Of a stretch of DNA of 64,000 nt, positions 3,001 through 60,669 are shown piece by piece. The notes under the pieces were generated by a model. That model was not told the DNA's origin and searched no databases. It saw nothing but the letters and a program-made list of their open reading frames with translations. Position 1 is the first letter of the stretch, and the number at the start of each line of letters is the position of its first letter. The stretch lies in the IMG/VR virus record IMGVR_UViG_3300014835_000015, positions 4,477 through 68,476 of that record, one strand, 5' to 3'. The stretch is from a virus. The position numbers and the translations under genes are program-made.

Positions 3001-5732
3001 TTCTTTTCATGTTCCGTAGCTTGTTTAAAGAATTCTGTTTGTGTTTGTATCTGTTGTTTAGTTTCATCATCTAAGTTTTTATTGTTATTAATTACTATAG
3101 GTTGTGAACCAAATGTAGGTAATATCTTTCTATGTATCTCTTCTAATGAATCCTTTGGTTCAATAGTAATAGTACCTTTATTAGTAACTAAACCATTGAT
3201 AGTATTTAATGCTTGTTTAACTGTTCTTTCAGTAGCAGGAGTAATATCTACTTTATCTGAATATACTTTAGAGATAGTTTTAGTTAATGCTGATATGCCA
3301 GTATTCTTTTGTTCTTCTGTACCTTTAATATCTTCAACATGACTAGATAGTAATAGTAAATCATGGTTTAAATCTAAAGATTCACCTCTTGTAATAGCAG
3401 AAAATACTTCAGAAGATGCTTTAGGTAAATGTTTAGTTTCAATACCAGTTTTAGCTAATACATAAGGATCATTAACTGTATTACTTTCAGCATACTTATC
3501 TGCTTTAGCAGTAGAAAGATACTTAAGAGTATTTAATGTACCTTCATCTTTAGTTCTTCCAATATCATTAAATATCGAACCAGTATTAGGTGATACAGTA
3601 TCTGTTGTATTTCCAACAAGATTAGCTTGAATATCTTCTATTGTAGTATCAGGATTATTAACTATAGATTCGTATTCAGGTACTTGTGTCCAATTGTATA
3701 ACTCTGATTCTGCATCAACTTGTTTAAGAATTGCATCATGTTCAGGTGATTCCATACCATTTCTAGCTATGTTAATAGCTGAAGCCATGTCTCTTTTTTC
3801 AGATAGAGTACCATCATGAGGATAATCTTTAATACCTTGGTTTATGACTTCTTGTCTATTGTCATCGGTAATAGTATCAACCTTAGTTTTATAATCATCT
3901 ATACTTGGCTTAGAAGGTGTCAAATCTTCTGTTTTAGGCACATCTACAGCCTCACTAAGTGTTGGTTCAACTGAAGGTGTTTTACGAGCTTGTAGAGCAG
4001 ATTTAGATGAATCTAGTATTGCTCCAGGAGTAGTCATTCCAGCTCCCATAGCAGCACCTAATACTGTACCTTCACCACCTGCTGAACCAACTCCTTCTTC
4101 TATTGGTTTACCAGTAGCTAAGTTAAGATAAGCTTGTTCTCCCATTGATTGAAGATTTTCTTCTATTAAACCTTCTGTAAATGCTGATTTACCTACTGAT
4201 TTAATACCAGTTCCTAGTGTTCTTTGTGGTGAAACAATATCAGCAATAGCATCACCAAAATGAGTACCTGTAAACTTGCTAATAGCTGCTGTAGTAAGAG
4301 CTGTAGCCACAATAGGTAAACCATATTCATTAAGAGTTTTACCTTGTTTTTGAGCTTGTTCTGCTGATGAACTAGCAGACTGAATACCTTCAAAATTAGC
4401 ACCATGACTAATTAAAGCTTTCTTAGATGCTTCAGATGATAGTGCTTCTTTACCTGCTAGTTTACCTGCTTCAGTAATAACTCCATTCTCTATGCCACCA
4501 GGAATAGTTTTAGCAGCATTAGTTACAATAGATTTAGCAAGATTAGCAGATGAACCAAGGATAGCTACCATAGGAAGTAAATTCTCAGGAACAGCTTCAT
4601 TAAATAAATACCTTGGATTAGATACTAAAGCTACTGCTGCATCTCCCCATTGTTCCATTTGATTGAAACCTTTATCTACAATACCTTCTGGTTTAAAACC
4701 ACTTGCTTCATGTTCTCTTTGTGTTTGAGATGCTCTTAATTCTTTAGCTTCTCTTGAAGCTTTAGTAGCAGGATCTTCATATAAATCTCTTAAGAAATTA
4801 CCTGTTCTTTCAAAATCAGGAGATAAATTTTTGAGGGTATCTTTAGCATTATCATCAATAGGTAATGTATCAATAGTATTAGTAGCAAACTTGCCTAGAG
4901 CATTATCTAAAGGTGTTTGTATTGCATCTGGAATAATAGCATCTCTTACCATAGTAGATGCACCTTTAAGCATTCCACCAGCAATAACACTACCACCTAA
5001 ACCAAATGCTCCTAAAGCTGTCTTAGCTGATCCAAGGACATTATCTAGTAAAGTAGGTTGTTGTAAATCATTCTTTAATTTACCTAATGAGTTAAATCTT
5101 GAATTGTAATCTACATTATTTTCAGGTGTATTAAGTGAGTCAATAATATTTGAACCAGATGAATCATATACATCAGCTATTTGTCGTTTACTCAACTTAC
5201 CATCATAAAGAGTTGGATCTTGTTTTAAGTCACCTAATTCAAGAGTATTTTGACCTAAGAGTTTAGCCTTAAGTAACTCTTTACCTTTCTCACCTTGAGC
5301 ATAAATATCTTGGTTTGTAATTTCATTAGGATTAGTCTTAGTCCAAGGAAACCATGAATCTTCATTACGAGTAGTAGCTAAAGCTTCTCGTTGCTTATTC
5401 ATCTTAGATACTGCTCTTTCAGAAGTTAAATCTTGACCTTCATGATAAGTTTCATAGGTATCTAATGATTGTCCTTGACCTGCATGTAATCTTAGTTTTA
5501 ATGGTTCAGTAACACCATTGGCTACTTCTACTGTACTAGGTAATATATCTACTGTATCTCCATCACTGTGTTCCCAATCTATCTTATTTTGGGTTAAGTC
5601 AATAGTAGATCTACCAAACTCATTACGTTTAGCGATTACAGTATCAAGTAAACTCTTTACCTTCTCAGTTGATTTAGTATTAGAATCATTGTAAGTAGTT
5701 CCTGAGTATGTAGTACCAGAGTAAGTAGTCAT
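3..5732 (-). CDS. Virion-encapsulated RNA polymerase (N4 gp50-like), N-terminal ~1910 aa, truncated by window start
   Basis: ATG at 5732 after an AAGGAAA RBS; the frame at the window start matches the start frame. Manual translation near 180-300 gives YFFNWLAKQGREHMTGGPQSNKWMR, matching the N4 vRNAP xxGR..PQS.K..R motif. No Cys noticed in manual translation (an N4 vRNAP trait). Position matches N4 synteny. Confidence 0.9.
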   Translation of the reverse strand, partial: MTTYSGTTYSGTTYNDSNTKSTEKVKSLLDTVIAKRNEFGRSTIDLTQNKIDWEHSDGDTVDILPSTVEVANGVTEPLKLRLHAGQGQSLDTYETYHEGQDLTSERAVSKMNKQREALATTRNEDSWFPWTKTNPNEITNQDIYAQGEKGKELLKAKLLGQNTLELGDLKQDPTLYDGKLSKRQIADVYDSSGSNIIDSLNTPENNVDYNSRFNSLGKLKNDLQQPTLLDNVLGSAKTALGAFGLGGSVIAGGMLKGASTMVRDAIIPDAIQTPLDNALGKFATNTIDTLPIDDNAKDTLKNLSPDFERTGNFLRDLYEDPATKASREAKELRASQTQREHEASGFKPEGIVDKGFNQMEQWGDAAVALVSNPRYLFNEAVPENLLPMVAILGSSANLAKSIVTNAAKTIPGGIENGVITEAGKLAGKEALSSEASKKALISHGANFEGIQSASSSAEQAQKQGKTLNEYGLPIVATALTTAAISKFTGTHFGDAIADIVSPQRTLGTGIKSVGKSAFTEGLIEENLQSMGEQAYLNLATGKPIEEGVGSAGGEGTVLGAAMGAGMTTPGAILDSSKSALQARKTPSVEPTLSEAVDVPKTEDLTPSKPSIDDYKTKVDTITDDNRQEVINQGIKDYPHDGTLSEKRDMASAINIARNGMESPEHDAILKQVDAESELYNWTQVPEYESIVNNPDTTIEDIQANLVGNTTDTVSPNTGSIFNDIGRTKDEGTLNTLKYLSTAKADKYAESNTVNDPYVLAKTGIETKHLPKASSEVFSAITRGESLDLNHDLLLLSSHVEDIKGTEEQKNTGISALTKTISKVYSDKVDITPATERTVKQALNTINGLVTNKGTITIEPKDSLEEIHRKILPTFGSQPIVINNNKNLDDETKQQIQTQTEFFKQATEHEKKYPNKRNDKTTSEVGNEIAVGGKGTRAEKLSITDHLKIITNVLNNGGSIKAVNTAKNRYTKWVSYHIEKARLAQKLAKAKPSEIKGIEQELSQHQPIEGFSFDYIPLVHTTGKSHSQGIQGLANEISSEANIMKTALDNIQKQIDIHFGITPQVTSTPESTSQTDENVLNSTNVNQDDDHVPSKDRPYNPNEGEVDLSTVPEDIPFNDNIPDDIESPTSNETTNTEEVITSEEETPVTASTEPTEVSLDEEGMLKSSETKIDTQILKYPGLLTKLEDLQQKLKEYTSSPKRKTMNSKLYNHGFDVQQEAIQKLLNKISESENSIKKLATILNEFKGNLPSKYQEFFTNNFPELVKELSFKDTTYKVDLEEAAVATPKEEVKTKVNLTDVAKPPKDAETYFQFVTEEYFPFTEVKQLGWIKGLLKQLVNKGFSSKEAFNVLQDIAINYEEDFDVDSKYGLIPNIINSLRPYYLMQSFGNLGLQDNTEYASVENGTPLLDKNGKQVLRNGKQVYKGALKEGELTVQRRFSDYLTVAKGNIFNKVPNVLDRLFSKPEKYFTNTDEVPKLKEFVKQFKGILLDKINFEKTNDITADPLVLLHQDKKLNDNVVSAFALSLLSFINSSTGSAFNANQMINSIFGRDADERVDAVMQGMFSTVGVGMTYQANSVGAQAVALLGIKSKNILTQRKLEASVGLQILNAGIEAGYLERHFVQQKDMAVYFPSLNEDTVNELTDSIITQDNIDSKLNGGTYFVRIATQEYEDEKYPQVAEDIIALLDETKKISKELDEILGTEFNKQKPNTKPYSKEVFFKRLGDTWKATATKYTLTEKEALFRYSNIAYSTNTKVAKHELSQIENFVRAIGTGKPLTWKSIEVNSKGAEGKDRQISNDIQEVKDGEESAKKTGSIYFFNWLAKQGREHMTGGPQSNKWMRWYFVPEGMTRIVDKSSDNPLHQYFKIAVLAAFGTKIDALLPDAVNTKFDALQSELKPIQEAFKDPVKNQQ

Positions 5733-12433: not shown

Positions 12434-13048
12434 CTAGGTTAAATATCTCCATAAATAACCTTTATAAGGAGTATTATCTAACTTCAGTATTCTATTTAAA
12501 CTGGTTTGACTTACATAGTCTAACAATAATGAAGCCTCTTTAACAGAATCAAATGATTTAACAAATGTTCCATCTAAATTAAATTGAGCAATAGGTAAAC
12601 TATGCGCTCTAATTGTGTTCTCTGATTTAGAAATCCATCTACAATTTGAGATTGAATAATTTTTTTCTGGATCAATCCTATCTAATGAGTATCCTTCAAC
12701 ATAAGAAGATCCCATCTGTAAATAGAATATTTTAAAATCTTCCCACATTGGGGAATATGTTATACCTTTTTCACCATAATACTTGTATCCAACATGTTTA
12801 GAGTTTCTACATCTTTCTTTCATACCACCCCAAGTATGGTAGATTTGTGTATTGTGCATTCCATGCCCAAATCCTGCAACAGTTCTACACTTAACTGCAC
12901 CACAACTTTTAGCTCTCATACCTATTGTAATTTCTTTTTTAACTGCTTCCTTACATGAAGGACAGTGAAATAAAGCATAACTACATAATTTAGTTTTTCC
13001 AGATTTTGTGATATGTGTTTCTGTTGGTAATTTTTGTAACTGTTTCAT
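12434..13048 (-). mobile_element. Free-standing HNH-type homing endonuclease with NUMOD1-like C-terminus
   Basis: WGGMKERC..YYGEKGI..SLDRIDPEKNYSISNCRW; C-terminal PIAQFNLDGTFVKSFDSVKEA. Confidence 0.8.
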
Positions 13049-32122: not shown

Positions 32123-32749
32123 ATGTCTACAAACAACTTTAAAGAAACACCTAGAATTAGAGCTAATAACAAAGCTAAAGTATATGGCATAGGAGTTAAT
32201 GATTCTCCTTATGTAGTTCAATACCTAGAAGAAGGTAAGACTATTACATGTCCATACTTTACAAGATGGAAGAGAATGTTAGAAAGATGTTATTCCCCAA
32301 ATTCTATATCAGAATATCAAACCTATACAAAGACTAAAGTCTGTGATGAATGGTTAATATTTACTAACTTTCGTAATTGGATGATTACTCAACAATGGGA
32401 AGGTAATCATTTAGATAAAGACATCATTGGTGATGGAACTTTATATAGTCCTGAAACTTGTAAATTTATTCCTCAAAGTTTAAATAATTTACTTATGTTA
32501 AACCAAGCTTCAAGAGGAATATATCCTGTAGGTGTTAGTTACATTACTAGAGAAAGGAAATATAGAGCATCTATTTGTATAAACTCAGTTAGAAAAGATA
32601 TTGGTATGTATAAGACAGTAGAAGAAGCTGTTTTTAACTACATAAGAGTTAAGAAAGAACACTTACTTTCTGTTGCTAACTTACAAACAGATATTGATTT
32701 AAAAAATGGATTAATAAAGTTTGCTAACAGTATTACTGTTGATAGTTAA
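32123..32749 (+). mobile_element. HNH-type homing endonuclease
   Basis: VYGIGVND..WKRMLERCY..VCDEWL..LDKDI..YSPETC; paralogue of 42132. Confidence 0.75.
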
Positions 32750-42131: not shown

Positions 42132-42761
42132 ATGACTAAATTTGTTGAAACACCTGTAACAAACAGAAGCTTAGCTCAACGCAAATTAGTATTTGGTAAA
42201 GGTATTAATGATGCTAATTATTTATTATCTTATAAAGTAGATAATAAAACACAATCATGTCCTTATTATGTAGTCTGGAAAAGCATGTTAAGAAGATGTT
42301 ATTCTCCATTGTTCCATATAAAACAATCTACATATATAGACTGTTCTGTTTGTAATTCTTGGCTTACATTTAGTAACTTTAAATCTTGGATGATGTTACA
42401 GGATTGGGTAGGGAAACAGTTAGATAAGGATATTTTAGAAAAAGGTAATAAAGAATATTCACCCGAAAATTGTATTTTTGTTACATCTCAGCTAAACGTT
42501 TTATTAAAAGATACTCAGAAAGTTCAAGGTGATTATGGATTAGGGGTTTACTGGAATACTGAAAAAAGAAAATTTAAAGCATCGTATAGAAACAGGGGTA
42601 TAGAGAAATTTTTAGGATATTTTGTGTTAGAAAAAGATGCTATACAGGCATATTGTTTTAATAAAGCTAAATATATTAAAGAAATTGCAGAAGAACAATC
42701 CGAATTAAAACTAAAGAATGCTTTAATAAATAGAGCAAATGATTTACTTTTAACTATTTAA
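42132..42761 (+). mobile_element. HNH-type homing endonuclease upstream of nrdJ
   Basis: VFGKGINDA..WKSMLRRCY..VCNSWL..LDKDIL..YSPENC. Confidence 0.78.
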
Positions 42762-46219: not shown

Positions 46220-46584
46220 AACAAATAAAGTTTAGAGCTTGGAATTCTAAAACACAAGAAATGACTTCTGACTTTAAATCAGAAGATTATTCAATAAATA
46301 CTTTCTTTAATAATTTCCCCTTTCCTGTTATGCAGTTTACAGGTTTAAAAGATAAAAATGGTAAAGAAATCTTTGAAGGTGATTTATATCACACAGTTCA
46401 CTCTACCAAAACATACACTATCTTTTCTAAATATGGTGCATTTTGTGGCGGATTATCTTTAGAATCCTGTGTACCTTTAGCTTGGATGATATGTGAAGAA
46501 GAAAATGAAATTATTCCAGATGATGAAATATTTTCTTTAATTGAAGTTATAGGTAATATATATGAAACACCTATTACATCATAA
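46216..46584 (+). CDS. YopX family protein
   Basis: IKFRAW..MQFTGLKDKNGKEIFEGD..EVIGNIYE. Confidence 0.9.
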   Translation: MKQIKFRAWNSKTQEMTSDFKSEDYSINTFFNNFPFPVMQFTGLKDKNGKEIFEGDLYHTVHSTKTYTIFSKYGAFCGGLSLESCVPLAWMICEEENEIIPDDEIFSLIEVIGNIYETPITS

Positions 46585-48118
46585 TTCAACTGAGAAGCTT
46601 AAAATAGCTCTATTGGTTAAAGAAACATCTCTTTCATTACCTGAGATTAGAAAACACTATTTAGACCCTCTCACGGCTCTAGGATTAGATGTTTCAACTA
46701 CTATTTCATTCAGCCTTAAAGGAGATAAACCAACTGCTTCTCAAGCTAAGGCATATCTAGGTAATTTATTACCTGCATTACAATCATTAAGTATAGATAC
46801 CTTATTGGTAGCAGATGGAACTTACTTCAAATACCTAACAGGTGTAACTAAAATAGATCCACATTTAGGCTATGTCTTACCTTGTAAGATTAAGAGATAT
46901 GAACACATAAATTGTATCTTATCTTTAAACCATAAAGCTTTATTCTTCGATCCAAGTAAACAAAGCAGAATTGATTTATCACTATCCACTTTAGCTAATT
47001 ATGTACTTGGTACTCATAAAGAAATAGGTAGTGATATAGTTCACAGTGAAGTTTATCCTGACACGGTAGAAGAGATAACCTTATGGTTGGATAGATTACA
47101 TCAGTATGATGCTTTAACAGTGGATATTGAAGCATTCTCGTTACAGTTTAATGAAGCAGGAATAGGTACAATTGCATTTGCTTGGGATGAACATAATGGT
47201 ATTGCTTTTTGTGTAGATTACTTCAGTGTTCCTTATACGATGTTTCACCCTTTTTATGGTACACAGTTAGATAACAGAGATATTAAAAAACTGCTTATTA
47301 AATTCTTTGAATCTTATAAAGGAAAACTCATATACCACAGTGTAGGATATGATGCTAAGGTTCTTCTTTACGAATTATTTATGAATAACTTACTAGACCA
47401 AAAAGGATTACTTTATGGTTTAGAAATAATGACTAAAAGTATTGATGATACAAAGCTCATTACATATTTAGCTACTAATTCATGTGCAGGTAATACATTA
47501 GGTCTTAAACCAAACACTCATGAATATACTGGTAATTATGCTCAAGAAGATATTAAAGATATTAGGTTAATACCTAAACAAGATTTGCTGAGATATAACC
47601 TCACAGACTGTTTAGCAACATGGTATCTTTATAAAAAGAACTATCCAATAATGGTAGCTGATAATCAACTTGATATTTATAACACTATCTTTATTCCTTC
47701 TGTAAAAGTAATTCTTCAGATGGAACTAACGGGTATGTGTTTAGATATGAACCAAGTTCTTAAAGCAGAACAAGAGTTAGTAGCTATTAAAGATATTCAG
47801 TTATTACAAATTAAGGATAATCCTTTAATTATTCAACTTGAAAAAGACTTAACATACAGAGCATGGATAAAAGATTTTGAGGATAGACAAGCTAAAGCTA
47901 AATATCCTGAAAAGATTAAAATGAAAGAAAAAATGAAACCAGTTATATTCAATCCAGGTTCACCTAAACAGTTAATTGAATTGGTTTACAATCAATTAGG
48001 TTTTGAAATTACTGATAGAACAGATACATTAGAACCTGCTACAGGTGGACATGTAATTAAAAAGCTGTTATACTCTTTTATGTCACAAAATAACATAACA
48101 GAGGAAGATATACGATGA
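46562..48118 (+). CDS. DNA polymerase (family A, N4 gp39-like), N-terminal fragment with 3'-5' exonuclease and start of thumb
   Basis: TVDIEAFSL (ExoI), YHSVGYD (ExoII), DDTKLITYLATNSCAGNTLGLK, YNLTDCLATW (ExoIII), FNPGSPKQL. Confidence 0.92.
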   Translation: MKHLLHHNSTEKLKIALLVKETSLSLPEIRKHYLDPLTALGLDVSTTISFSLKGDKPTASQAKAYLGNLLPALQSLSIDTLLVADGTYFKYLTGVTKIDPHLGYVLPCKIKRYEHINCILSLNHKALFFDPSKQSRIDLSLSTLANYVLGTHKEIGSDIVHSEVYPDTVEEITLWLDRLHQYDALTVDIEAFSLQFNEAGIGTIAFAWDEHNGIAFCVDYFSVPYTMFHPFYGTQLDNRDIKKLLIKFFESYKGKLIYHSVGYDAKVLLYELFMNNLLDQKGLLYGLEIMTKSIDDTKLITYLATNSCAGNTLGLKPNTHEYTGNYAQEDIKDIRLIPKQDLLRYNLTDCLATWYLYKKNYPIMVADNQLDIYNTIFIPSVKVILQMELTGMCLDMNQVLKAEQELVAIKDIQLLQIKDNPLIIQLEKDLTYRAWIKDFEDRQAKAKYPEKIKMKEKMKPVIFNPGSPKQLIELVYNQLGFEITDRTDTLEPATGGHVIKKLLYSFMSQNNITEEDIR

Positions 48119-48798
48119 GAATTTTAAAAGATTTAACAGGAATTGTAGTTGGAAAATTAACCGTAATTCAAGAAGTTGAAAGAAAAATATCACCTACAAG
48201 AAGTATTCGACAATGGGAATGTAAGTGTGAGTGTGGTAATACCTGTATTGTAGTACATACACACTTACAATCAAAGCATACCTTAAGTTGTGGATGTCAT
48301 AAAATAGAACAAATTATTGCCAGAAGTACAACACATGGATGCTCTGTAAAAGATAAAGATCATCTCTATACTTGTTGGTTAAGTATGCGAGCTAGATGTA
48401 ATAACCCCAACACGATCAATTACGATAAGTATGGTGGAAGAGGTATTAAAGTATGTGATGAATGGGAAGAATCTTTCATATCTTTTAAAAAGTGGGCAGA
48501 TAACTGTGGATATTCTAAAGAATTAACAATTGATAGAATAAATAATAATTTAGGATATTTTCCAGATAATTGTAGATGGACTACAGCTACTATACAAGCA
48601 CGAAATCAAAGAAAAAGTAAAAATAGGTCATCTAAATTTATGGGAGTTACAGCTTTTAAAGAAAAATGGCAAGCAGCTATTCGTATTAACTATAAAGCAA
48701 TACATTTAGGTACTTTTAATACCGAAGAAGATGCTGCTAGATTTAGAGATAATTATATTATTTCCAATAATTTAGAGGGTTTTACCCTTAATTTTTAA
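48115..48798 (+). mobile_element. HNH-AP2 homing endonuclease inserted in the DNA polymerase gene
   Basis: YGGRGIKVCDEW..TIDRINNNLGYFPDNCRW; AP2-like WQAAI..HLGTFNTEEDAA. Confidence 0.88.
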
Positions 48799-48858: not shown

Positions 48859-49035
48859 ATGAAAAAAGTTACTGTTAAAAGATTACAAGATTTACTAACA
48901 TCTTTAGTAGAACAAAAGGTTATTAATGAAGATGATGAATTAATGATCTCTTGTTATGAAACCCTATGTACCATAGATGAAGATCATTGTAAAAAAGTAC
49001 AAATAGATATTAATGATAATTTAGAGGTGTCATAA
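48859..49035 (+). CDS. 58-aa hypothetical protein within the pol interruption
   Basis: GAGG RBS; MKKVTVKRLQ..LEVS. Confidence 0.5.
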   Translation: MKKVTVKRLQDLLTSLVEQKVINEDDELMISCYETLCTIDEDHCKKVQIDINDNLEVS

Positions 49036-49257
49036 ATGAAACATAAAGAAATATTTCAAAAACTTGTAGATAATGTTATCTATAATGAAGAACAGAGTTA
49101 TTATGAATATCTTTCAGAAGAATTTCCTGAGATTGATGAAGAAGATTACTTTGATATTAATACTTATGGAAGAGAAGATATGAACCATGTATATGCTTAT
49201 GCTTTACAATGTAGAGATTACTTACTGGAGAATCCTGTTAGTGAGTTAAGTACATAA
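49036..49257 (+). CDS. Acidic 73-aa hypothetical protein within the pol interruption
   Basis: ORF track; stop overlaps the next ATG. Confidence 0.55.
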   Translation: MKHKEIFQKLVDNVIYNEEQSYYEYLSEEFPEIDEEDYFDINTYGREDMNHVYAYALQCRDYLLENPVSELST

Positions 49258-49766
49258 TGACAAAACAAGAAGCAATAGAAATTGCTAAACTTCTGAAAGC
49301 ACTCATCGAATTATCAGCAGTCGAGAAAATCTTATCTACATTCATATCTGCATTTAAAGAGAAGTCAATCATAAAGGATAATGGCTATTACTATTTACAC
49401 GGAAGCTTCAATTTAGGTGGTACAAAGAGTATGAGATTATCTAGCTCTGATCCTAATCTTACTAACTTACCTAGTGGGTCAAAATATGGAAAACTAATCA
49501 AAACTTGCTTTGTTGCACCTAACAATTACATTTTTGCTGGAGCTGATTTTGATAGCCTTGAGGATAAAGTATCAGCTCTTACAACTAAAGACCCTAACAA
49601 ACTTAAAGTCTATGAAGACGGTTATTGTGGGCATTGTTTAAGAGCTTATGCTTACTTCAAAGAACATATGCCTGATATAGAGAATACGGTTGATGGTATT
49701 AACAGTATAGCAAAGCTATACAAGGGGTTGCGGCAGAGAAGTAAAGAACCTACTTTTCTGCTTTAG
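49257..49766 (+). CDS. DNA polymerase middle fragment (thumb, palm motif A, start of motif B), ending at an in-frame TAG
   Basis: LHGSFNLGGTKSMRLSSSDPNLTNLP, GADFDSLED (motif A), GHCLRA, RQRSKEPTFLL*. Confidence 0.9.
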   Translation: MTKQEAIEIAKLLKALIELSAVEKILSTFISAFKEKSIIKDNGYYYLHGSFNLGGTKSMRLSSSDPNLTNLPSGSKYGKLIKTCFVAPNNYIFAGADFDSLEDKVSALTTKDPNKLKVYEDGYCGHCLRAYAYFKEHMPDIENTVDGINSIAKLYKGLRQRSKEPTFLL

Positions 49767-50369
49767 CTAACCTATGGAGGAACTCATTTCGGATTAATAG
49801 ATACGGTTGGTTTACCAAAAGAAACAGCATTATCTATTGAAAATAACTACCATACCTTATACGCAGTGTCTGATGAATGGGTAGCTGATAAAATAGAGCA
49901 AGCAACGAATACAGGTTATGTAGAATTAGCATTCGGAGGAAGGCTTAGAACACCCATATTGAAGCAAACCATATTAGGTAACAGAAATACCCCTTATGAA
50001 GCTAAACAAGAAAGCAGAACAGCAGGTAATGCTCTAGGTCAGTCGTATGGAATGATGTGCAATAGAGCAGCTATTGAAATGCAACAAAGAGTATTAGCTT
50101 CAAAATATGCTTTAGATATTAAACCAGTATGTATGATTCATGATGCCCTGTATTTCCTTATTAAAGACACTGTAGGCTGCGTAGCATGGTTTAATAAGAA
50201 CTTAACTGAATGTATGGCTTGGCAAGAATTAGAAGCAATACAGCATGATACTGTAAAGATTTCAGCTAGTGTAGACTTATTCTACCCTAACTGGAGTACA
50301 TCTATTGGTTTACCAAATAACTCAACAATGAAACAAATACTTGATATTTGTAAAAAGGAATACAAATGA
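49767..50369 (+). CDS. DNA polymerase C-terminal segment, in frame after the TAG
   Basis: LTYGG (rest of motif B), RTAGNALGQS, MIHDALYF (motif C); no convincing independent start. Confidence 0.85.
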   Translation, partial: LTYGGTHFGLIDTVGLPKETALSIENNYHTLYAVSDEWVADKIEQATNTGYVELAFGGRLRTPILKQTILGNRNTPYEAKQESRTAGNALGQSYGMMCNRAAIEMQQRVLASKYALDIKPVCMIHDALYFLIKDTVGCVAWFNKNLTECMAWQELEAIQHDTVKISASVDLFYPNWSTSIGLPNNSTMKQILDICKKEYK

Positions 50370-50626
50370 AGAGATTTAGTCACACATGGTTTAATGGAAT
50401 GATTGAAGTTCCAAATGGTGAGTATATAAAAGAAAAAGAAGCTTGTGTATATTTACAGCATTGGATAGATAATCAAACTAAGTTAGAAAAGGTCATTGAA
50501 GCTCAGTTACATGACTGGAAGGAGCTTCGTATAATATATGATGCTGAAAGAATACTTACTCTATTACTAACTGCTGGACTATTAGTCTCAGCATTCTTTA
50601 ACATTTTTCAATTTTTAATAAAATAA
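50366..50626 (+). CDS. Hypothetical protein with C-terminal TM segment
   Basis: ORF track; hydrophobic C-terminus. Confidence 0.5.
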   Translation: MKRFSHTWFNGMIEVPNGEYIKEKEACVYLQHWIDNQTKLEKVIEAQLHDWKELRIIYDAERILTLLLTAGLLVSAFFNIFQFLIK

Positions 50627-50627
50627 T

Positions 50628-50843
50628 ATGGAACATAAATTAAAAGGACTTGCCAACGAAATACAAGAACAAAAGAGCATCTTGGTAGACGTAGGACTAA
50701 TAATAGAATTTGGTTTACGAAATTATAGAGAATACCTTAAAACATTATTTTATGAACCAATGTCACTAAGAATGGGTAATTTCATTAGACAATTACACGA
50801 TATGTCTGATGAACAAATTGAACTTACACTACAAAAATTATGA
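50628..50843 (+). CDS. Hypothetical protein
   Basis: ORF track. Confidence 0.5.
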   Translation: MEHKLKGLANEIQEQKSILVDVGLIIEFGLRNYREYLKTLFYEPMSLRMGNFIRQLHDMSDEQIELTLQKL

Positions 50844-51031
50844 ATAAATCAACATTACTTTTAGTTAAAACTAATGCTCAATTACTTATTTCAAGAATTG
50901 ATAAAGTATTAGATGTAGTACCAGATCAACAACTTAAATGGAACTCGGGTTATCCAAAAGAAACTGCTTCACTAAGAAGAACTTCAATGGAACTTACAAG
51001 ATCTTTAGCTGACCTTAGACAAAATAAATAG
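50840..51031 (+). CDS. Small phage hypothetical protein
   Basis: SGYPKETASLRRTSMELTRSLADLR; ATGA coupling. Confidence 0.55.
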   Translation: MNKSTLLLVKTNAQLLISRIDKVLDVVPDQQLKWNSGYPKETASLRRTSMELTRSLADLRQNK

Positions 51032-56346: not shown

Positions 56347-56423
56347 AAGCTAGTAGTTCAATGGTAGATCATCCTAATAGTAATTAGGTAGGAGTGTTAT
56401 TGGTTCAAATCCAATCCAGCTTA
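56347..56423 (+). tRNA. Degenerate tRNA/pseudo-tRNA with non-canonical anticodon loop
   Basis: AAGCTAG/CCAGCTT acceptor, GTTC-AATGGTA-GATC D-arm, ATTGG-TTCAAAT-CCAAT T-arm. Confidence 0.55.
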
Positions 56424-59625: not shown

Positions 59626-60669
59626 TACACTAAACTTAGCGCAGCAAACAGAAATGTTTGTAAAAATAAACTAATTGAAATCAGGGGACATCCTACTATT
59701 AAGTTAAGGACAATCCTGAGTGAAGATTTTACATTAAATATATTTTTGTGTATAATATCCCCTTACAAACTAATTGAAGATATATAACATGAAAATAAGA
59801 TATGAACCAACTAAAGAAGATTTCGCAGGTAACTTTATTAAAGAAGTATTGCCTAGAAATGTGTGGGATATAAAACGTAATAACTATAGACCTATAAGAC
59901 AGGTAGAACTTCAATGTTTACATTGCTCTAGTAATTTTATTGTAGATTTAGGTAATGCAAAAAGAATTCAACAAAAAACTTGTAGTGCTTCTTGTAGTAG
60001 AAGATACACAGAACATTTTGATGGTGGAAATGAAAATCATCCACTATATCCAAGATGGTTATCTATGAAACAAAGAATTTTAAATCCAAACTGTAATAAT
60101 TTTAAAAATTATGGTGGAAGAAATCTTATTATAGATGATATTTTTTTAGAATTTATTCCTTATGCAGAATATATTATGCAATTGGAAAATTATAATTCTG
60201 AAACAGTGTCGCAGATTTCTATTGATAGAATAGATAACAATAAAGGGTATATTATTGGTAATTTAAGAATAACGAACCAAAGTGTTCAAAATGCTAACCA
60301 ACGATTTAGTGGAAAAGGTAATAATACCTATACAGGAGTTAGTTGGAGTAATTTCCATAAACGATGGGTAGCTAGTATATCTTTTAAAAAGAAAGTAGTT
60401 TTTACTAAAGTTTGTTTAACAGAGTATGAAGCCTTTATCGCAAGAAAAGAATTCATTATACAAAACAAATTACCACATACCGTCCAAGAGTGGATAATGT
60501 AAAATAACATGCAACGACTATCTCGAAAGAGAGTAGAGTCAAGTGACTCGAAGCGGTTAGTATCTAAACAGATAATGCTGTAGATAATGATATAGTCTAT
60601 TCTGAATAGTAATATTCAGCAGTTCATCAGAGAACGGGTATGAATTAACGAAGCATATCGAATATAAAG
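59626..60669 (+). mobile_element. Group I intron (IA2-like) carrying a homing endonuclease
   Basis: P1 GCGT/GCGC with U.G at the 5' splice site; P7 GACTA/TAGTC; P7.1 TCTC-GAAA-GAGA; P7.2; terminal G at 60669; removal restores the frame and a W-G motif. Confidence 0.9.
59789..60502 (+). CDS. Intron-encoded HNH-AP2 homing endonuclease
   Basis: LYPRWLSMKQR..YGGR..SIDRIDNNKGY..QNAN; AP2-like tail. Confidence 0.85.
   Translation: MKIRYEPTKEDFAGNFIKEVLPRNVWDIKRNNYRPIRQVELQCLHCSSNFIVDLGNAKRIQQKTCSASCSRRYTEHFDGGNENHPLYPRWLSMKQRILNPNCNNFKNYGGRNLIIDDIFLEFIPYAEYIMQLENYNSETVSQISIDRIDNNKGYIIGNLRITNQSVQNANQRFSGKGNNTYTGVSWSNFHKRWVASISFKKKVVFTKVCLTEYEAFIARKEFIIQNKLPHTVQEWIM

Follow-up and report, generated by a model that had tools for sequence, protein, structure and literature searches.

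We analysed a stretch of 64,000 nucleotides (nt), hereafter the window, which spans positions 4,477 to 68,476 of IMG/VR record IMGVR_UViG_3300014835_000015 (74,313 bp, G+C content ~31%, 100% complete according to CheckV) and derives from an uncultured freshwater phage whose family A DNA polymerase gene is interrupted by an in-frame stop codon within motif B. The polymerase, whose nearest counterparts are found in N4-like phages (Schitoviridae), is the single family A polymerase in the whole record and is encoded in pieces; a megablast search of the polymerase region against GenBank phages returned no match. The C-terminal piece (C-part) occupies a frame of 370 codons (49257-50369) that is open except for one TAG at 49764-49766, in the context TTT CTG CTT TAG CTA ACC TAT GGA GGA (49755-49781; Table 1). 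Pfam DNA_pol_A matches flank the TAG on both sides (profile positions 73-199 and 218-360), and the segment behind it runs through motif C to a TGA stop, as had been noticed in an earlier interpretation made from the letters of the DNA (the sequence-only reading). On the evidence set out below, the full-length C-part is probably made by a short translational bypass, and the insert that is bypassed probably belongs to a family of cassettes linked to homing endonucleases.

Table 1. Features of the window and of related polymerase loci. Codon triplets are given in the order take-off, gap, landing of the proposed bypass; ORF, open reading frame; SD, Shine-Dalgarno.
Sequence	Feature	Position	Strand	Detail
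Window	Proposed take-off codon	49761-49763	+	CTT (Leu)
Window	In-frame stop codon; proposed 3-nt coding gap and slow A-site codon	49764-49766	+	TAG
Window	Proposed landing codon	49767-49769	+	CTA (Leu); decoding would resume at ACC 49770
Window	C-part coding segment 1	49257-49763	+	169 codons, ending ...RQRSKEPTFLL at the take-off codon
Window	C-part coding segment 2	49770-50369	+	TYGG... via motif C to TGA stop
Window	SD-like element	49722-49729	+	AAGGGGTT; encodes cassette-type Y-K-G
Window	Hairpin	49732-49762	+	12 bp, 7-nt loop; 49732-49743 pairs with 49751-49762; -15.1 kcal/mol
Window	Layout			CTT TAG CTA
L212	Layout			CTT TAG CTT
L215	Layout			CTT TAA CTT
L221	Layout			CTC TGA CTT
L227	Layout			CTT TGA CTT
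L228, L209	Layout			CTG TGA CTA
L078	Layout			CTC AGG TAA CTT; context TTC TTG CTC AGG TAA CTT ACC TAT
L231	41-nt gap	3165-3250		ACG, 38 nt with UUCG-capped hairpin, ACG TAT
L232	5-nt gap	~3195-3215		ACG TAG CG TAT
L233	5-nt gap	~3185-3205		ACC TAG CT TAT
L248	5-nt gap	~3330-3345		ACT TAA TT TTT
L039	40-nt insert	4702-4790		Strong hairpin, between ACT and ACA TAT
Window	DNA polymerase N-terminal protein (exonuclease and thumb)	46562-48118	+	518 amino acids
Window	Free-standing HNH endonuclease gene, phrog_374 type, inside the polymerase split	48115-48798	+	E 1.3e-73
Window	Two small passenger ORFs between the HNH gene and the C-part	48859-49257	+	58 and 73 amino acids
Window	Other phrog_374-type HNH gene	12434-13048	-	
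Window	Other phrog_374-type HNH gene	~32258-32632		
Window	Other phrog_374-type HNH gene	~42267-42647		
Window	Other phrog_374-type HNH gene	~59888-60472		

The interruption is visible as an excess of exactly two codons. Approximately 50 relatives with an intact motif, drawn from GenBank and IMG/VR, read PTF[A/L]LTY at this position, where the window has six bases more. An uninterrupted relative (L008) aligns without gaps to the O-helix of a solved Pol I structure (RQKSKEPTFLLTYGGT versus RQKAKVVNFALIYGGT), and the F-x3-Y spacing is fixed across the relatives and Pol I. The window fits the consensus R-x3-K-x3-F/Y-x3-Y-G only when 6 nt are skipped, and removal of any one of several overlapping hexamers yields F-L-L-T-Y. 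The sequence itself, the relatives and the Pol I alignment thus bear out the claim of the sequence-only reading that CUU-UAG-CUA lies inside motif B and makes the Phe-to-Tyr distance two codons too long. The comparison with relatives that it had proposed as a check gave two results: the insert is extra with respect to the intact relatives, and a similar layout is present in seven other sequences.

Two Logan contigs span the insert with 0 differences from the window, one from the probable source run (X1, covering 48968-50877) and one from a second sample of the same study (X2, covering 49674-49910), and the phage reaches 10-14x depth in one sample and is present in the second. At the contig-consensus level the insert is genuine DNA. 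An assembly or sequencing artefact would account for the stop codon with no translational event, as would some unknown process that excises the 6 nt from the RNA or the DNA. The data are indeed contig-level and both samples come from one study, but the two runs were assembled separately and agree exactly, the same layout appears in other phages from independent studies, and 6 nt is far below the size of a self-splicing intron. Taken together, we consider this explanation extremely unlikely, and the assembly artefact that the sequence-only reading had listed among its alternatives is very unlikely given that both contigs carry the insert unchanged. A group I intron in the window was likewise ruled out, as an Rfam search of the window gave no intron signal and the insert measures merely 6 nt.

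An altered genetic code offers no way around the stop. TAG terminates 10 of the 77 long ORFs and, where it is read through in three of these cases, other stops follow; reading TAG as a sense codon gives the ORFs of the window genome no gain in length. An alternative code with TAG as sense was therefore ruled out, TAG being an ordinary stop across the genome.

The layout F-L-L-stop-L-T-Y is shared by seven more diverged N4-like polymerases, one of which (L078) came from a pattern search of IMG/VR and six from a targeted scan of metagenome contigs (Table 1). Because the Leu-stop-Leu arrangement recurs in these sequences, the insert of the window is not a chance occurrence. All three stop codons are used across the eight, the flanking codons are always CUN and no pair is incompatible with a single tRNA-Leu. 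The codon 3' of the take-off codon is a slow one throughout: the window has UAG there, six relatives have one of the three stops, and L078, whose gap is 6 nt, has AGG and then UAA. The core of the window, ACT TTT CTG CTT TAG CTN ACC TAT, matches L212 at 23 of 24 bases. A metagenome pattern that also allowed TGG at the stop position found none in polymerase context, a search of IMG/VR for other +6 inserts likewise found none in polymerase context, and no relative has a sense codon here. L078 and L221, with 69% amino acid identity downstream of the stop and 78% between their endonucleases, have gaps of 6 and 3 nt, respectively. Because three stops are used, TGG is never found, the flanks are always CUN pairs and the gap lengths of L078 and L221 differ, the conserved element, as judged from this alignment, is a stop between two matching Leu codons and not a given residue, and this is what a hop would need.

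In the polymerases that carry the layout, the reading frame downstream of the stop is maintained. Their protein identity in this region ranges from 41 to 69%, all polymerase motifs are intact, and the proportion of non-synonymous differences (pN, 0.23-0.41) is far lower than that of synonymous differences (pS, 0.65-0.92, mostly saturated); by these measures purifying selection acts on the region. L078, L231, L233 and L248 come from records that represent 90-100% complete genomes, one of them with direct terminal repeats.

Stop-codon readthrough by a suppressor or near-cognate tRNA, with two extra residues tolerated in the O-helix, is the most direct alternative to a hop, and some features of the window would suit it. 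The insert is in frame at 6 nt, a UAG followed by C is a weak termination context, and the phage encodes an odd tRNA. However, readthrough is hard to reconcile with the use of three different stop codons at one position, the lack of any sense codon there in a relative (TGG included) and the fixed F-x3-Y spacing. It would moreover add 3 residues in L078 and 2 in its relative L221, it would have to operate at a codon that serves as an ordinary stop in the rest of the genome, and it is unable to explain the cassette family as a whole because sister cassettes, described below, have gaps of 5, 40 and 41 nt. The odd tRNA lacks a CUA anticodon, and it is not found in four other phage genomes that have gaps. 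We regard readthrough as decidedly unlikely.

The gene for this tRNA-like molecule lies at 56347-56423 on the plus strand and scores 41 bits against the Rfam tRNA model. Its anticodon arm folds with a 12-nt loop or, as ARAGORN draws it, has a loop of 6 nt (TAGTAA) together with a long variable region; the call given by that program is 'Thr|Tyr (gt)'. As a suppressor tRNA it was rejected on the grounds just given.

Two RNA features lie upstream of the stop in all eight sequences. First, an SD-like element, AAGGAGG or AAGGGG, is present in 8/8; it encodes Y-K-E/G where the insert-free relatives have Y-P, and its core occurs in all eight hop sequences compared with 8/42 non-hop sequences (Fisher p 2.4e-5). 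Second, a hairpin of 10-14 bp begins two or three bases past the SD-like element in each of the eight, its 3' arm in the window taking in the first two bases of the take-off codon. The eight hop sequences have folding energies of -11.8 to -17.2 kcal/mol, compared with a mean of -6.5 in 42 distinct insert-free relatives (Mann-Whitney p 2e-5). In-register pairing is found in 87.5% of cells versus 46-63% when the partner is slid, and two adjacent pairs are compensatory, with CAA GAG/TTC TTG in most sequences versus CAG AGA or CAG AAG/TTT CTG. When the hairpin is looped out, the SD-like element comes to lie ~5-7 nt from the landing codon. A further SD-like sequence, GGAGGA, downstream of the landing codon was considered as a conserved element and ruled out, as it is not kept in relatives.

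The same arrangement of SD-like element and hairpin could be seen as a bridged ribosome-binding site, such that translation stops at TAG and restarts just downstream, yielding a polymerase in three pieces whose O-helix is built from two polypeptides. The conserved SD-like element, ~5-7 nt from the post-stop codon once the hairpin is looped out, would agree with this, and polymerases split into separate proteins are common in the group. Against it, the post-stop codon is CUN in 8/8 and no bacterial start codon occurs there; the first in-frame ATG, GTG or TTG after the TAG is a GTG at 49866, 33 codons downstream and beyond the essential YGG, which agrees with the sequence-only reading that no credible start covers YGG. 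A duplicated Leu codon would have no role in such a scheme, and a cut in the O-helix between L and T would part the F762-like and Y766-like residues. A restart of this kind is, in our judgement, very improbable.

We favour instead a hop, in which the six bases CTT TAG (equivalently TAG CTA) would represent a short untranslated insert in the O-helix of motif B. A peptidyl-tRNA-Leu on CUU 49761-49763, with UAG in the A site, would unpair; the mRNA would slide by 6 nt, and the tRNA would re-pair on CUA 49767-49769. Nine nucleotides would thereby be decoded as one Leu, the canonical ...KEPTFLLTYGG... would be restored and the product would contain ...EPTFLLTYGGTHFGLIDTVGLPK. We infer that the hairpin, on refolding behind the ribosome, may tug the mRNA forward, as proposed for gene 60 of phage T4 (10.1101/2024.12.09.627546), and that pairing of the SD-like element with the anti-SD sequence may then set the landing register. 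The one-Leu hop restoring F-L-L-T-Y-G, put forward in the sequence-only reading, draws support from the layout of the eight sequences, the hairpin and SD-like element, the signature of purifying selection and the sister gaps whose lengths are not multiples of three.

The layout is closely associated with a homing endonuclease. A NUMOD4/HNH_3 endonuclease gene lies directly upstream in five of the seven other layout-bearing sequences (L078, where it occupies 1655-2242, L209, L215, L221 and L228), the five proteins sharing 54-78% mutual identity, and the C-part ORF behind it has a fresh start, M-x-I-E-E-I-T-Q-x-E-Y..., with the take-off codon at ~codon 37-43. L227 has the same ORF start and the hop with no endonuclease gene, and the L212 contig is too short to judge. 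In a reciprocal search, an endonuclease query of IMG/VR returned five polymerase loci, all of them gapped in motif B (L078, L231, L232, L233 and L248), and in each the hairpin ends 0-3 nt before the take-off codon. An endonuclease-adjacent layout that splits the gene and places a new start before the gap is thus seen in L078, L209, L215, L221, L228, L039, L231, L232, L233 and L248; with L212 and L227, similar inserts are present in twelve related phages. A full cassette would comprise the NUMOD4/HNH_3 gene, a fresh start codon, ~40 re-coded polymerase codons, a stop-containing gap and a matching landing codon, the re-coded stretch carrying AAGGAGG as its SD-like element and, directly against the take-off codon, a hairpin.

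The cassettes found through their endonuclease differ in the form of the gap. In the three with 5-nt gaps (L232, L233 and L248) the landing triplet equals the take-off codon at only two of three positions, and its third base varies with the corresponding base of the take-off codon in L232 and L233. In L039 and L231 the gap contains a GC-rich hairpin, the Thr codons for take-off and landing are matched (ACT/ACA and ACG/ACG, respectively), and the gap is flanked by stem-loops (z -3.9 and -4.8); both loci closely resemble the gene 60 bypass. L039 came from a polymerase-based fetch of 59 IMG/VR loci, two of which (L049 and L039) have lesions within the same 12 nt. Both flanks of L039 are 99% identical to those of L041, and L039 differs from L041 in exactly three respects: it has the HNH gene, the downstream polymerase ORF is re-coded at its 5' end, and the 40-nt insert is present. 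In L049 (5868-5900) there is one extra T (ACC TTT C GCA CTT), which only a +1 shift at UUU C would accommodate, but a sequencing error in a homopolymer is just as possible.

A different kind of interruption occupies the same site in Acinetobacter phage nACB1 (GenBank OQ032511), whose polymerase is interrupted at TTT GCG T^TA ACA TAT, that is, in the same Leu codon. This interruption has an Rfam Intron_gpI signal and an HNH gene inside, and its endonuclease is homologous to those of the cassettes, with identities of 53% (L039) and 33% (L078). From these comparisons the motif-B site is a hot spot for mobile DNA. Because the gap accompanies the endonuclease gene at 5/5 loci and because of the insertion site of the nACB1 intron, and by analogy with MobA and gene 60 of T4, the gap probably breaks the DNA target of the endonuclease, the conserved motif-B coding sequence, and leaves the protein unchanged. 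The evidence points to a link with homing endonucleases through target-site disruption, and the suggestion in the sequence-only reading that a hop limits or regulates polymerase output found no support. Its alternative of a 6-nt intron scar was not far off: a group I intron does occur at this very site in nACB1, and the window itself contains no intron signal.

A hot spot of this nature also raises the possibility of an inactivating lesion, that is, a repair scar of homing-endonuclease or intron activity, at which TAG simply terminates and leaves a dead or truncated polymerase in a defective or helper-dependent variant. The damage at the site is varied, from the intron of nACB1 and the extra nucleotide of L049 to inserts of 5 to 41 nt in other relatives; the inserts are flanked by repeats of 2-3 nt, as microhomology-mediated repair could leave; the window has no cognate endonuclease gene; and defective genomes do occur in metagenome assemblies. 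Such a scar would nevertheless leave unexplained why the stop-between-Leu layout, the hairpin and the SD-like element are kept across eight diverged sequences and why ~200 downstream codons remain intact and under purifying selection. The gene encodes the only family A polymerase in the record of a phage found at 10-14x depth in one sample and present in a second, and the sister records are complete genomes. We thus hold a lesion to be unlikely, and retain the translational hop as the preferred explanation.

The relation of the window to the full cassettes can be deduced from what it retains. Its polymerase has no split at the cassette position, the gap falling at codon 169 of the C-part, and it keeps the cassette-type Y-K-G, the SD-like element, the hairpin and the gap. 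From this comparison we read the window as a cassette remnant, which would have arisen either through a short conversion tract gained without the endonuclease gene or through later loss of both the endonuclease gene and the split. The sister sequence L005 has no hop. Nucleotide identity between the window (49257-50369) and L005 (4001-5092) is 90-95% at both ends of the C-part and 50-60% in codons 41-80 and 141-220, and the motif-B region of L005 resembles the nACB1 type (TYQGTWSTLVKN). This mosaic suggests repeated gene conversion around the hot spot.

Several observations weigh against a hop in the window or limit how far it can be pressed. Of the eight codon pairs, CUU/CUA is the poorest match; a hop between them needs a tRNA-Leu(UAG), with U34, to read CUU, or else has to tolerate a wobble mismatch at landing. 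The SD-like AAGGGG of the window, a core shared with L227, places these two as the weakest among the eight, and the local fold of the window taken alone is no better than that of shuffled sequences, gaining support solely when relatives are compared. No NUMOD4/HNH_3 (phrog_59) homologue occurs in the window genome. Unstimulated stop-hops are described as low-level events, and the supply of polymerase could be very low. The read evidence is contig-level and from one study, so a minority allele free of the insert may exist. The hop-bearing sequences fail to group as a single clade in a tree built from the part of the polymerase downstream of the stop, and some of these copies may be recent transfers. 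A tblastn search with the cassette C-part and the endonuclease as queries found no cultured phage with the cassette. Lastly, for every member of the cassette family it is from comparative sequence evidence that we infer the hop and how efficient it may be, what the hairpin and the SD-like element may do, and the immunity that the insert would confer.

The tree also bears on the history of the element. A single origin of the hop was considered and is unsupported by the tree (6 changes, of which at least 2 are forced), and the non-monophyly would fit either a mobile cassette or repeated loss.

To our knowledge, natural programmed bypassing is essentially limited to T4 gene 60 with its MobA relatives and to one yeast mitochondrion. 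In T4 the arrangement is gene 39/mobA/gene 60, and the association of gene 60 bypassing with the MobA homing endonuclease (Huang 1988 and Bonocora 2011, cited in Manning & Atkins 2022, 10.1101/2022.08.31.505936) provides the nearest parallel to the cassettes. Take-off occurs at codon 46 next to a UAG, the take-off and landing codons match, the 50-nt gap shields the DNA from nicking by MobA, and some members of the MobA family have lost the endonuclease and retained the bypass (10.1101/2022.08.31.505936). The cassettes have the same organization, with an essential conserved gene split by an HNH-type endonuclease gene, a downstream ORF that starts afresh and, ~40 codons in, an untranslatable insert that opens with a stop right after the take-off codon. 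In both systems the insert lies in the presumed target of the endonuclease, and in both the endonuclease can be lost with the bypass kept. The differences are nonetheless substantial. The host gene here encodes motif B of a family A polymerase and not a topoisomerase, and the endonuclease lineage is NUMOD4/HNH_3. The gap is 3 nt (6 nt in L078) compared with 50 nt in gene 60, there is no take-off hairpin within it, the 3' arm of the hairpin holding the take-off codon instead, and the SD-like element lies upstream of the hairpin and not inside the gap. In the window, moreover, take-off would be at codon 169 with no adjacent cassette endonuclease gene.

At the level of the codons, the window is closer to the synthetic stop-hops of E. 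coli reporters, which were engineered, low-level and free of stimulators (Weiss et al. 1987, described in PMC5009743 and 10.1101/2024.12.09.627546). In these, as in the window, matched codons flank a stop, 9 nt yield one residue and the product is two residues shorter than that of readthrough. In contrast, the layout described here is natural, is kept across diverged phages and is accompanied by a conserved hairpin and SD-like element. According to a 2016 recoding review, no natural in-frame stop-hop was known (PMC5009743), and our literature search found no paper describing this polymerase site. The sequence-only reading had suggested that CUU UAG CUA is the exact classic stop-hop nonamer; that wording was not found in the literature searched.

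Three further systems offer partial likenesses. The insertion point of the nACB1 group I intron is the same as that of the window within alignment ambiguity, and the two differ in that the nACB1 interruption is of a kind removed by RNA splicing, whereas the window has a 6-nt insert with no intron signal. The +1 frameshift site of prfB, which encodes release factor 2 (RF2), is CUU UGA C, with a P-site tRNA-Leu on CUU and an upstream SD-like stimulator. The hop set resembles it in the CUU take-off codon, the stop in a weak context with C following and the SD-like element upstream (L227 reads CUU UGA CUU), but prfB requires a +1 shift into a new frame where a +6 (or +9) shift would be needed here. 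Finally, the byps of Magnusiomyces capitatus mitochondria are 27-55 nt long and unlinked to homing endonucleases (cited in 10.1101/2022.08.31.505936). Like the cassettes, byps are short, mobile and inserted into essential genes; their take-off and landing codons match, and a slow codon follows take-off. The gaps of L039 and L231, with their GC-rich hairpins, have a similar appearance.

The remaining genes of the locus include an endonuclease gene of another type. The split between the N-terminal protein and the C-part is at a point common to the window and its closest relatives (L005-L009 and L016), and because these share it, the split is old and presumably functional. The HNH gene within the split belongs to a different endonuclease family from that of the hop cassettes. 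Because it is one of five paralogous phrog_374-type HNH genes, with four copies elsewhere in the genome (Table 1), the phage is rich in free-standing endonuclease genes. The 73-amino-acid passenger ORF has a homologue in L005 (83% identical). Two metatranscriptome runs (X10 and X11) each contain one 210-nt contig with identical ends (49164-49373) that spans the start of the C-part, one of them at a depth of 37.6; it may represent a stable RNA fragment or DNA carry-over. Elsewhere among the relatives, the polymerase of Vibrio phage vB_VpaP-MS02 (L001, 3259-3420) has an in-frame insertion of ~66 residues in the fingers that is absent in N4 and in the window.

Seen more broadly, the case is about evenly balanced that the loci described here make up a diverse, mobile family of micro-bypass elements in N4-like phages, aimed at motif B, with gaps of 3-41 nt, driven by a hairpin and with the register set by an SD-like element, that this family includes the first natural conserved stop-hop, and that it illustrates a general route by which homing endonucleases break their own DNA target and spare the protein. 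If the hop is real, the window would be a rare natural case of an event so far documented for short stop-hops in engineered genes only. It would provide a minimal natural bypass, with a 3-nt gap, alongside a graded series of 5, 6, 40 and 41 nt within one motif, suited to dissecting take-off and landing. It would carry a warning for annotation, where such polymerase genes are called fragments or pseudogenes. It would also constitute an independent second instance of a homing endonuclease travelling with a bypass element, and would support bypassing as a means of self-immunity for selfish DNA.

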